A DNA stretch of 28,285 nt from IMG/VR virus record IMGVR_UViG_2850761752_000007. One strand, written 5' to 3'. The position numbers were made by a program. Positions 18,001-21,000 of the stretch are shown piece after piece. Within the stretch, counting starts at the first letter, position 1; the number at the start of each line of letters is the position of its first letter. The DNA is from a virus. Lineage: Duplodnaviria; Heunggongvirae; Uroviricota; Caudoviricetes.

Positions 18001-21000
18001 GCCTTCAGGAAGGGATAATCGGGAAGCGCCTTCACTGATCGAAAGTTGATTTTCAAGAACCGTTCTGACAGCTTCGGCTTTGAACTCTTTAGAGTAACGT
18101 TGGTTTTTTCTGCTCATTATTAGCTCCTTCTGATGCCATTCTATTTCAGGAAGGAGTGTCCGTTAAACTCAGGCTACCTCAGCCTGAGGGCAGGTGTAAA
18201 ACAATAATCAAGCATGGGGTTCATATCCATAGCTCCATTTTTATTTTAAGGAAAGCAACTGCTCTACGGTCATGTTTTTAATTGCGCCCCGGTTTACAAG
18301 AGTCCAGCCCTGTTTTTCCAGATAAAACCGGAAAGTCTCCAGGGTACAGACCAGTGCGCCATCAGGAACGGTTTCGGTGAATTCGACATTGCCGAATTTG
18401 TCGAAGTGAACAACCAGAGTGCGACCATCACCCGGAATCATCTTGTCAGCAGGTGGGGTGTTATTCTGGCGCAGTTCGGCCTCCATGCGGTCGAACTCAG
18501 CAATGTAGGCTTCCTTGAATGTGGCGGCTTTTTTGCCCGTGAAGCCCATCACCAGGAAAACGAAGCCGTTTTTGGTGATTTGGTAGGCGTTATAAGAATT
18601 GCCGCGGTGTTCGAATTTAACCCGCGAAAAGTTGCTGGTTAAAAATAGTTCAGAACATTCGAAGGATTCTATTTTTTGAACAACATGGTGATGCTGCTTG
18701 CCAAAAAACTCAGCAATCGAAATAGAAGTAGTGACGGCGCGACCATTTTCGATGGTTACGTCAGGGTGAGAAAGGGTAGTAGCCATAATGACATCCTCAA
18801 GTGATAAGTTAATTAACTCACCAGCAGAGGTGCTAATCTCATGGGTGGTGAGACGCACAGGGTTAGCACTACCGGTCACTCGAGAACCCGGCCAGCCTTG
18901 CGGCTGCCCCGCACGCCTCACCATAATTTGAATGTGGCTGTGCATTACGCATAAAAAAACCGCTTCAGCGCGGTTATGCGCTCGAGTAACTTTCGGGGTG
19001 CTAATCCCGGCACCCGTTTTATGAGGTGCAGGTGCACTATAATTCCACCCGTTCTGGTTTTCAATAGCTACATTCAACATTTTCTCTTTCCTTTCATCAC
19101 CGAAGTGAATTTTGTGATGCGGTGCCTAGTGCCTCCAGGTGACGTTAACCAGTTAACAATTACAGTCGGCTTTCCCACCCAAACCAATAAGGACTAACAT
19201 GACTTTTAACTGTGCCGCGTGCGCTTAGCCGCATTCACCGCATCACAAAATTCACTTTAAAAAGGGCGGACATCAGCCAGCAATTAAACCGATGCCGCCA
19301 ACTGGTACTTCACACAGCAATGTCGTTATTTACAACCGGAAGCGCACTCCCACCATTTAAATTTCACAGACAAGACCGACTCTTTATGAATACCGGAAAT
19401 GCGCCTTCGTGTTGTGCCCGGTTTTATTTCACCACCTCCGGGCTTTGGTGGCCTCGGCTATGAGGTAGCCTGAGTTTAACGGACACTCCTTCCTGAAATA
19501 GAATGGCATCAGAAGGAGCTAATAATGAGCAGAAAAAACCAACGTTACTCTAAAGAGTTCAAAGCCGAAGCTGTCAGAACGGTTCTTGAAAATCAACTTT
19601 CGATCAGTGAAGGCGCTTCCCGATTATCCCTTCCTGAAGGCACTTTAGGACAATGGGTTACCGCCGCCAGAAAAGGGCTCGGTACTCCTGGTTCCCGCAC
19701 GGTGGCTGAACTGGAATCTGAAATTCTGCAACTGCGTAAGGCGTTAAATGAAGCTCGCCTTGAGCGAGATATATTAAAAAAAGCAACAGCGTATTTTGCA
19801 CAGGAGTCGCTGAAAAATACGCGTTAATCGAACAATGGCGACAACAATTTCCCATTGAAGCGATGTGTCAGGTATTTGGTGTATCCAGGAGCGGTTATTA
19901 CAACTGGGTACAGCATGAACCCTCAGACAGAAAACAAAGTGATGAGCGGCTAAAACTGGAGATTAAGGTGGCACATATCCGCACTCGCGAAACATATGGA
20001 ACCCGGCGGCTCCAGACGGAGCTGGCAGAGAATGGCATCATCGTTGGTCGTGACCGACTGGCACGTCTTCGTAAGGAGCTAAGGCTACGCTGTAAGCAGA
20101 AACGCAAGTTCAGAGCGACTACGAACCCGAACCACAATCTGCCAGTTGCGCCAAATCTGCTGAACCAGACGTTCGCTCCTACAGCACCAAATCAGGTCTG
20201 GGTGGCGGACCTGACGTATGTTGCCACACAGGAGGGATGGTTGTACCTCGCTGGCATCAAAGATGTTTATACGTGCGAAATTGTCGGCTACGCCATGGGA
20301 GAGCGCATGACAAAAGAGCTGACAGGTAAAGCCCTGTTTATGGCGCTCAGGAGCCAGCGCCCACCTGCCGGGCTAATCCACCACTCTGATCGAGGTTCAC
20401 AGTACTGCGCATACGATTACCGGGTCATACAGGAGCAGTCTGGTCTGAAAACATCAATGTCGCGTAAAGGTCACTGTTACGACAACGCTCCGATGGAAAG
20501 CTTCTGGGGAACGCTGAAAAATGAGAGCCTGAGCCACTATCGTTTTAATAACCGGGATGAAGCCATCTCAGTAATACGGGAATACATTGAGATTTTCTAC
20601 AATCGTCAGCGTCGTCACTCTCGTCTGGGGAATATCTCCCCGGCAGCCTTCAGGGAAAAATATCATCAGATGGCTGCTTAAAAAAAGAACAAATGGTAGT
20701 GTCCGCTATTGCCAGTACACCTCACTATACCTCTACAGCGAGAATATTGAATTAATCCAATAAATGGATTAGCTGGTATTTTTGGCAAGCCAGCGACGTG
20801 CGCCAGCTTCGGTTTTAAACGTTTTGCTTTTGGTATACGTCATGGCGGTGAATGTGCCGTCCTGATTGGGAAACACGCCACACACTAGGGATTCGTTGTT
20901 GCCAAGATCGATAGTATCCATGCTGACCTCATTTCCCCTTAACGCCGGGGTAGTGGAACTGTTTGCTGAGAACACCGTGCGGTGTCTTGATGAATGAAAC

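Follow-up and report, generated by a model that had tools for sequence, protein, structure and literature searches.

The slippery A run of the insertion sequence IS600 occurs in two lengths in a 28,285-nt window of the Shigella boydii chromosome (CP026731.1, prophage region), and the shorter form is probably a genuine, heritable one-base contraction that leaves OrfA-only, non-autonomous copies and has been redistributed by recombination. The window, meaning the whole stretch of DNA that was analysed, holds four IS600 copies of 1261–1264 bp. Comparison of their sequences confirmed the preliminary description in assigning seven A's (A7) to copies 2 and 3 and six (A6) to copies 1 and 4. The difference is not due to chance, as the same one-base change is found at the same insertion sites elsewhere. 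To judge from their sequence, copies 1 and 4 most likely persist as passengers unable to make transposase. The phenomenon itself is ordinary mobile-element decay, in which a known element carries a recurrent inactivating allele.

All four copies have the same ends, with imperfect terminal inverted repeats of the TG...CA type that start TGAGGT (23 of 40 positions match between the terminal 40 nt of the two ends), and they are 99.8–100% identical apart from the differences given here. Near-identical copies carry the RefSeq name ‘IS3-like element IS600 family transposase’, and precomputed Pfam matches assign HTH_Tnp_1 to the orfA product and HTH_21/rve (DDE) to the orfB product. Copy 3 (19461–20724, plus strand), which equals the IS600 consensus and served as the reference for copy-by-copy differences, is flanked by a CTA/CTA target duplication. 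On the same strand it encodes orfA (19525–19827, 100 aa) and orfB (19863–20681, 272 aa counted from the ATG), with the slippery heptamer A_AAA_AAA at 19776–19782 in the orfA phase. Copy 2 (16918–18181, minus strand; orfA 18117–17815, orfB 17779–16961) departs from this reference by a single substitution, G>T at IS position 501 (window 17681). Copy 4 (25261–26523, plus strand), near the 3′ end of a prophage holin gene, combines A6 at 25576–25581 with G>A at IS position 1082 (window 26341), equivalent to R340H in the notional OrfAB; its altered orfA spans 25325–25612 (95 aa) and its orfB 25662–26480, both on the plus strand. Copy 1 (6067–7327, plus strand) lies within a prophage tail-fibre gene, with intact ends and a TTG/TTG target duplication, and at least 11 further assemblies share this insertion. 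As assembled, copy 1 carries three 1-bp homopolymer deletions relative to copy 3, namely A6 at 6381–6386 (plus strand), which is common to close relatives, G3>G2 at 6261–6262 and G4>G3 at 7110–7112. Target-site duplications of 3 bp are therefore seen at copies 1 and 3, while copies 2 and 4 have exchanged flanks. The preliminary description had located the A tract correctly in copies 1, 3 and 4 and one base off in copy 2, where the run, T7 on the plus strand, occupies 17860–17866 and not 17859–17865.

Copies 2 and 3 resemble canonical IS600 (IS3 family, IS3 group) in their length of 1264 bp, in having orfA and orfB in frames 0 and -1, in the A7 run and in the hairpin that follows it; the 3-bp duplication of the canonical element is shown by copy 3, the flanks of copy 2 having been swapped by inversion. 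Frame computation places orfB of both A7 copies in the -1 frame and gives a 385-aa OrfAB upon a -1 shift, as had been proposed for slippage on A_AAA_AAA. With 99.8% identity to copies 2 and 3, copies 1 and 4 are IS600 by sequence, yet they lack the arrangement of the IS3 family and IS600 with orfB in the -1 frame, since their orfB is computed to lie in the +1 (equivalently -2) frame. The heptamer of the A6 form, A_AAA_AAG (25576–25582 in copy 4, plus strand), reads in the orfA phase, and the X_XXY_YYZ pattern is satisfied by the A7 and A6 forms alike. A -1 shift on A6, however, enters a frame that stops after 14 codons and restores the wild-type 100-aa OrfA, with no longer fusion; the 385-aa OrfAB is reached by a -2 shift, and a +1 shift leads to a fusion of 384 aa. 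These computations bear out the frames given in the preliminary description and its statement that ordinary -1 frameshifting cannot fuse the two genes in A6 copies. The early OrfA end that it reported for A6 copies, ...KKQQRILHRSR, holds for copy 4 (95 aa) but not for copy 1, whose orfA, as assembled, goes out of frame earlier, at codon 44.

Downstream of the run, a stimulatory hairpin is predicted at 19785–19825 (plus strand) with a 9-bp core stem, GCGUAUUUU/AAAAUACGC, and a folding energy of -13.1 kcal/mol that is modest relative to expectation (z -2.06). The core stem begins 6 nt past A7, or 5 nt past the A6G heptamer in the A6 copies, and both spacings fit the rule that stimulatory RNA structures lie 4–10 nt downstream (PMC4066793). 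The IS600 cluster A_AAA_AAA_1, with its stem-loop, is cited there as a proven case of -1 frameshifting on the basis of unpublished data (PMC4066793). In titles and abstracts of the literature on IS600 frameshifting, natural A6/A7 variation is not addressed, and no literature pairing IS600 with the term ‘slippery’ was found.

The A6 alleles recur well beyond CP026731.1. At the copy 1 site A6 is also present in CP182558.1, CP068090.1 and PSSU01000002.1, with A7 in Sb227, AFGC01, AMJU01, AMKG01, AMKB01, AMJX01, AMJZ01 and CP026811. At the copy 4 site it is shared by CP182558.1 and CP049285.1, both with the linked 1082G>A, and by Sb227 (CP000036.1) and CP162080.1. Records of the 95-aa OrfA encoded by A6 come from 122 contigs of a number of sources and include at least four sites in S. 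boydii Sb227, under the name ‘IS600 ORF1’. Assembly error, one of the origins suggested in the preliminary description, is refuted as the source of the A6 tracts because A6 at both sites recurs in independent assemblies, among them the early reference genome Sb227, which we take to have been Sanger-sequenced. It is thus highly improbable that A6 reflects homopolymer under-calls of long-read assembly, even though CP026731.1 does hold probable consensus errors, two of them inside copy 1, and the 73-aa truncated OrfA that such errors create is found on one contig only. The private errors all fall in G/C runs and none in A/T runs, the window and CP182558 are identical at every base over 3.96 kb around copy 4, and the other A7 run of the element (IS positions 1220–1226) is called A7 in all four window copies. 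Some A6 calls in long-read assemblies could nevertheless be homopolymer errors.

The G-run deletions of copy 1 are of a different nature, and they were missed in the preliminary description. The G2 at 6261–6262 (plus strand) is G3 in all other copies and all orthologues, and its deletion shifts orfA at codon 44 so that it ends after 73 aa. The G3 at 7110–7112 (plus strand) is G4 in all others, and cuts orfB to 217 aa. Together with deletions at 5100, 5394 and 5549, they make up five private 1-bp G/C-run deletions between 5100 and 7113, a patch of about 2 kb that has zero substitutions relative to CP182558 and CP068090. This pattern suggests that the G-run deletions of copy 1 are probably consensus errors of CP026731.1, and the patch would give rise to spurious pseudogenes in both the tail-fibre gene and copy 1. 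A further candidate for assembly error, the segment at 24183–24340 with eight indels relative to Sb227, was rejected, as the indels are private to Sb227 and the window agrees with CP182558, CP049285 and CP026811.

All four insertion sites are polymorphic between strains, which have either A6 or A7. Among the genomes compared, A6 was found in 4 of 12 at the copy 1 site, 4 of 9 at the left-end site of copy 2, 2 of 10 at the copy 3 site and 5 of 10 at the copy 4 site. At this last site the A6 allele is found on two SNP backgrounds, 1082A and 1012A, and sister genomes with 1012A have A7, which requires at least two independent changes. The suggestion of an inactivating mutation at a hot spot is thereby supported, given the loss of the canonical -1 route to OrfAB, the polymorphism of the run at all four orthologous sites and the repeated change at the copy 4 site, although part of the recurrence is probably due to recombination or gene conversion. 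The insertion flanks match E. coli prophage genes, and none of the complete E. coli genomes searched carried these insertions.

Exchange between copies has left its own traces. In the window copy 2 is flanked by GGC/TGA and copy 4 by GAT/GGC, whereas the corresponding flanks in CP026811 are GGC/GGC and GAT/TGA; the swap therefore implies an IS–IS inversion between copies 2 and 4, which, as their flanks indicate, are recombinant copies. Two rare SNPs, 337T>C and 1012C>A, turn up in different genomes in copies that are not orthologous, and together with the inversion they point to recombination among IS600 copies. At least seven A6 copies lie at distinct sites with perfect 3-bp duplications. A diagnostic SNP for an ‘A6 subfamily’ was sought and rejected, as A6 copies differ from the consensus by private SNPs only. 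No SNP goes with A6 from one copy to the next, so that repeated slippage and the spread of one original allele cannot be told apart.

The frequency of A6 differs between collections. Complete E. coli genomes have A6 in 6 of 1333 records and A8 in 3 of 1333, and IS600-carrying plasmids have A6 in 28 of 262 records and A8 in 3 of 262. The plasmid A6 records come mostly from pINV plasmids of S. flexneri and S. sonnei and from EIEC plasmids; the search of this collection returned IS-sized pieces only and no orthologous insertion junctions, and a plasmid origin of the window was rejected. Exact protein matches placed the window on CP026731.1. The second A7 run (IS positions 1220–1226) provided a control. 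Among E. coli records, 45 of 3419 have this run contracted to A6, a higher level than for A6 at the slippery site, and the run is nearly invariant in the Shigella copies collected. An argument for selection at the slippery run from this control was dropped, contraction of the control being commoner in E. coli. A6 alleles of the control run are spread in lineages, and A-run contraction is therefore not peculiar to the slippery site and no selection can be claimed.

A mechanism can be proposed from these observations. Replication slippage in the A run is the most likely origin of A6, which would then have been passed among many Shigella IS600 copies by homologous recombination or gene conversion, possibly aided by mobilisation in trans, and would build up where the IS600 copy number is high. 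With A_AAA_AAG in phase and the hairpin still 5 nt on, ribosomes should keep slipping by -1. Such a slip would yield only the regular 100-aa OrfA, and translation without a slip the 95-aa OrfA with an altered tail. As far as the reading frames can tell, OrfAB transposase would require a -2 or +1 event and would be absent or very rare. The A6 alleles, which sit in IS600 elements that are otherwise intact, ends included, would then be mobile only with transposase supplied by A7 copies.

Other readings grant these copies more function. A slippage-dependent on/off state was the remaining suggestion of the preliminary description, and slipped-strand mispairing might toggle the run between A6 and A7 and act as a reversible switch between silent and transposase-competent states. 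Related strains do show both states at every one of the four orthologous sites, and the copy 4 site has changed at least twice, but recombination among copies accounts for the same pattern, and the changes are observed between strains and not inside one. The run is also only 6–7 nt, and typical contingency tracts are longer than this; few records have A8 (3 of 262 for plasmids, 3 of 1333 for E. coli). A switch is accordingly quite improbable. Selection might instead retain the A6 copies as repressors, their OrfA-only output damping IS600 transposition in IS-overloaded genomes. Every ribosome on A6 would end with a protein of the OrfA type, the exact wild-type OrfA being restored by a -1 shift. 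A6 is also about ten times as frequent as A8 in the plasmid collection, whose A6 records are mostly from Shigella or EIEC, the two alleles being comparably rare in E. coli. Drift is sufficient to explain this, however, as the non-coding control A7 run also has a lineage-spread A6 form in E. coli, and the inhibitory role of OrfA is known for other members of the IS3 family but putative for IS600. Retention as repressors is very unlikely.

The A6 copies may also be attenuated and not dead, if low-level -2 frameshifting on UUA_AAA_AAG or A indels made by RNA polymerase still provide OrfAB. A -2 shift would give exactly the 385-aa OrfAB, and intact duplications flank many A6 copies at separate sites. 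In RefSeq the A6 copies (1156 nt) carry the label ‘programmed frameshift’ and are given a 385-aa product, but this label is assigned via protein alignment and is the output of an annotation pipeline, not of an experiment. In an HIV cassette a shorter spacer raises the ratio of -2 to -1 frameshifting, and ‘savior’ indels with low-level compensatory frameshifting are known in other systems (PMC5009743). The herpesvirus thymidine kinase G7 run is one such case, and is like A6 in that a one-base homopolymer indel shuts off a product (PMC5009743), but any residual product from IS600 A6 is hypothetical. Slippage by -2 would require the P-site tRNA to pair anew with UAA, an imperfect match. The transcriptional route is best judged against IS1447-type elements of the IS3 family, which resemble the A6 copies in that orfB is read in the +1 frame and the orfA/orfB junction contains an A run. 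IS1447 makes its transposase via transcriptional slippage on a native run of nine A's and requires at least seven, and its runs of six A's or fewer, the A6 mutant included, gave no slippage product (PMC6211511); the six A's of IS600 fall below this minimum. An upstream hairpin as a possible driver of transcriptional slippage is poorly supported, only a weak fold being predicted directly upstream of the run (-9.2 kcal/mol, z -1.41). Residual transposase activity is thus unlikely. A composite of these ideas makes the A6/A7 run a reversible ‘gear’ of IS600, with OrfA-only repressor copies, possible trace transposase through -2 shifts, selection for damping IS expansion, and re-arming to A7 by slippage or gene conversion. 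This seems rather improbable; if it were true, selection acting on either the host or the element would underlie the enrichment of A6 in Shigella and EIEC.

As a heritable contraction that probably leaves non-autonomous copies, A6 has parallels in known systems. Engineered run-length mutants of the slippery sites of IS1, IS3 and IS911 are laboratory constructs in which one-base changes fuse or separate the frames. They are alike in that a one-base reset of the frame controls transposase production, whereas IS600 A6 is natural, heritable, multi-copy and polymorphic between strains. Non-autonomous or defective copies of transposable elements are similar in having intact ends and a disabled route to transposase. 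Unlike in the usual defective copies, the defect of A6 is a single reversible base and not a deletion, and its mobilisation in trans is putative. The A6 copies are commoner in the sampled IS600-rich replicons of Shigella and EIEC than in ordinary E. coli. RefSeq gives A6 copies the same 385-aa product as A7 copies, and protein-level surveys are therefore blind to A6 and may overcount active IS600 copies. In models of IS600 activity in Shigella, copies 1 and 4 should be treated as probably non-autonomous.

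The 1264-bp element present four times in the window is IS600, whose frameshift site is already documented. Its products carry HTH_Tnp_1 and rve domains, and near-identical E. coli copies bear the RefSeq name "IS3-like element IS600 family transposase". Copy 3 (19461-20724, + strand) equals the consensus, and copy 2 (16918-18181, - strand) differs from it solely by a G>T substitution at IS position 501. Copy 4 (25261-26523, + strand) has six A's for seven (A6 for A7) in the slippery run (25576-25581), along with G>A at IS position 1082 (window 26341). Copy 1 (6067-7327, + strand) also has A6 (6381-6386) and departs from the consensus in two G runs (G3>G2 at 6261-6262, G4>G3 at 7110-7112). 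Copy-to-copy comparison bears out the preliminary description in assigning A7 to copies 2 and 3 and A6 to copies 1 and 4; the run of copy 2, placed there at 17859-17865, occupies 17860-17866. Lambdoid prophage genes of E. coli type flank the insertions (those for a tail fibre and a holin, along with a tRNA cluster), and none of the window's insertion junctions was found among the plasmids or complete E. coli genomes searched. An exact match to the 73-aa product of copy 1 assigns the window to CP026731.1 (4.41 Mb), probably the chromosome of Shigella boydii ATCC 8700. The tRNA cluster (∼24470-24780; tRNAs for Ile, Arg, Thr, and Gly, recognised by homology with an E. coli locus whose annotation is available) is carried by the prophage, directly upstream of the holin that copy 4 interrupts.

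The computed orfA frame of the A7 copies reads UUA AAA AAA GCA, with the A_AAA_AAA heptamer in phase, and a -1 shift yields the 385-aa fused transposase, OrfAB. A hairpin is predicted with a 9-bp core stem from 6 nt 3' of A7 (-13.1 kcal/mol, z -2.06), and the IS600 cluster (A_AAA_AAA_1) is listed by Sharma et al. as proven stem-loop-stimulated -1 frameshifting (PMC4066793). The frame of the A6 copies is UUA AAA AAG CAA, which turns the heptamer into an in-phase A_AAA_AAG, ranked among the most efficient frameshift motifs (PMC4066793), at a hairpin distance of 5 nt. Here the zero-frame product has 95 aa, the product of a -1 shift matches wild-type OrfA (100 aa) exactly, and fusion is reached only via a -2 (385 aa) or +1 (384 aa) shift, the -2 product being normal OrfAB, with R340H in copy 4. 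The frame computation thus agrees with the earlier claim that an ordinary -1 shift makes no fusion in A6 copies. The early OrfA end ...KKQQRILHRSR, attributed to both, holds for copy 4 (95 aa) but not for copy 1, which as assembled shifts frame at codon 44 and stops after 73 aa. The output of A6 copies would be limited to OrfA-type proteins, leaving elements with intact ends that are presumably transposase-null or nearly so.

Orthologous insertion sites were retrieved from other public assemblies with junction or neighbouring proteins as handles. At the tail-fibre insertion of copy 1, which has a TTG duplication, A6 is found in CP182558.1, CP068090.1, and PSSU01000002.1, and A7 in S. boydii Sb227 (CP000036.1), AFGC01, AMJU01, AMKG01, AMKB01, AMJX01, AMJZ01, and CP026811.1; CP068090.1 (probably S. 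boydii FDAARGOS_1139, from Braunschweig) may represent the same type strain as the window. At the holin junction, where copy 4 lies, CP182558.1 and CP049285.1 have A6 together with 1082G>A linked to it, Sb227 and CP162080.1 also have A6, and A7 is found in CP162059.1, CP055124.1, CP160647.1, JWSL02, and CP026811.1. The 95-aa A6 OrfA occurs in 122 contigs across NCBI, ENA, and Logan. Around copy 4, the window and CP182558 show no difference over 3.96 kb, and differences private to the window were looked for around copies 2 and 3 and none seen. Assembly error had been offered as a source of the A6 tracts; their recurrence at the same sites in other assemblies excludes it, and by this comparison the A6 of copy 1 can be taken as real.

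In the 5.7 kb surrounding copy 1, all that separates the window from CP182558 and CP068090 is five 1-base deletions in G/C homopolymers (5100, 5394, 5549, and, for the runs 6261-6262 and 7110-7112, 6263 and 7113), with zero substitutions, and every other assembly compared agrees against the window at these positions. Five private deletions in 2 kb with zero substitutions form an unnatural pattern; consensus is probably poor over this short stretch, which makes the two G-run lesions of copy 1 probable artefacts. On this reading, the tail-fibre gene is falsely broken by these deletions (216 aa in the window vs 365-598 aa elsewhere), as is IS600 copy 1. A gene for an ipaH-type effector (with LRR_TTSS and NEL domains; 2499-4141) falls into two ORFs, of 100 aa and of ∼390-447 aa, and may be a true pseudogene or a further consensus error; elsewhere it is one 608-aa ORF beside the same tail-fibre locus. 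In Sb227, eight private 1-base indels fall within 160 bp adjoining an IS1 end (1854-2016 of its fetched locus L007, equal to window 24183-24340), a segment across which the window, CP182558, CP049285, and CP026811 are concordant.

All four insertion sites are polymorphic among strains, A6 being present in 4 of 12 genomes compared at the copy 1 site, 4/9 at the copy 2 left end, 2/10 at copy 3, and 5/10 at copy 4. A6 occurs at the copy 4 site on two SNP backgrounds, 1082A and 1012A, and sister 1012A genomes have A7, which implies at least two independent changes there. Perfect 3-bp duplications are found at no fewer than seven A6 copies at distinct sites. No SNP linked to A6 across copies was found, so that a single origin with spread is not distinguishable from recurrent mutation. 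Two rare SNPs, 337T>C and 1012C>A, are found at non-orthologous copies of different genomes (loci L017, L020, L031, L038, L039, L042, and L008) and are absent from orthologous copies in sister genomes, a scattering that reads as a signature of gene conversion among IS600 copies. The 3-bp flanks are GGC/TGA at window copy 2 and GAT/GGC at copy 4 vs GGC/GGC and GAT/TGA in CP026811, and the neighbouring genes (YdaE side, SLT side) are swapped in step with them relative to CP026811, CP162059, and others. Judging by these junctions, copies 2 and 4 have recombined reciprocally; the swaps indicate that the 7 kb between (18182-25260) was inverted through IS600-IS600 recombination, an arrangement shared by CP182558. 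New slippage is thus not the sole possible source of A6, as exchange between copies has direct evidence in such comparisons.

The inverted copies 2 and 3 enclose 1279 bp (18182-19460), including an ORF (18241-19080, - strand) for a 279-aa Phage_ASH/pRha-domain protein. This layout resembles a composite transposon; against that, it is conserved in at least eight further chromosomes of Shigella, and copy 3 is flanked by a CTA duplication of its own. IS1 is likewise present as two inverted copies (23420-24188 and 26804-27572; 769 nt, 100% identical).

A true phase-variable switch between A6 and A7, as the preliminary description had offered, is improbable; the run is short, and recombination accounts for the same pattern. 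A6 copies may keep some residual activity through -2 frameshifting or transcriptional realignment, an unsupported possibility. RefSeq labels the A6 copies in loci L025 (NZ_CP065613.1) and L026 (NZ_CP007136.1), 1290-2445, "programmed frameshift" and joins them from two pieces, which would favour such activity, but the label is pipeline output. The joined A6 copy has 1156 nt vs 1157 nt for A7 and the same 385-aa product, which suggests a putative -2 join and masks the A6 allele at the protein level. Also against residual activity, no convincing hairpin was found upstream of the run, and IS1447, the one IS3-family element known with an A run and orfB in the +1 frame, yielded no product from six A's (PMC6211511). 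That A6 elements act as repressor copies is an appealing but speculative possibility.

IS copies with a disabled frameshift are common, and public databases have included the A6 OrfA for a long time: Sb227 has at least four sites with the 95-aa form, deposited as "IS600 ORF1". In the literature searched, no paper was found on the slippery run as a polymorphic site at orthologous IS600 insertions, on run contraction making a -1 shift restore OrfA, or on annotation concealing the A6 allele; these three points are worth noting but do not amount to a discovery.

A census by short queries spanning the run, with records containing the region as denominators, found A6 in 6 and A8 in 3 of 1333 complete E. 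coli genome records, and A6 in 28 and A8 in 3 of 262 plasmid records, the 28 being chiefly S. flexneri and S. sonnei pINV and EIEC plasmids. A second, non-coding A7 run (IS positions 1220-1226, e.g. window 20680-20686) lies just past the stop codon of orfB. All four copies in the window have A7 here. The A6 form occurs in a further copy (L011) of this genome and, among 3419 E. coli records, in 45, of which many are ETEC plasmids. Alleles with a contracted A run thus spread through lineages even where they serve no special role, and no selection is claimed for A6 in the slippery run. IS600 has many copies in Shigella and one or two in E. coli; it belongs to the five IS whose expansion is common to all Shigella (PMC7373316). 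Copy number offers the simplest reading of the A6 distribution: in Shigella, defective copies could survive, benefit from complementation, and be propagated through recombination, and in E. coli, with its one or two copies, they are rare.
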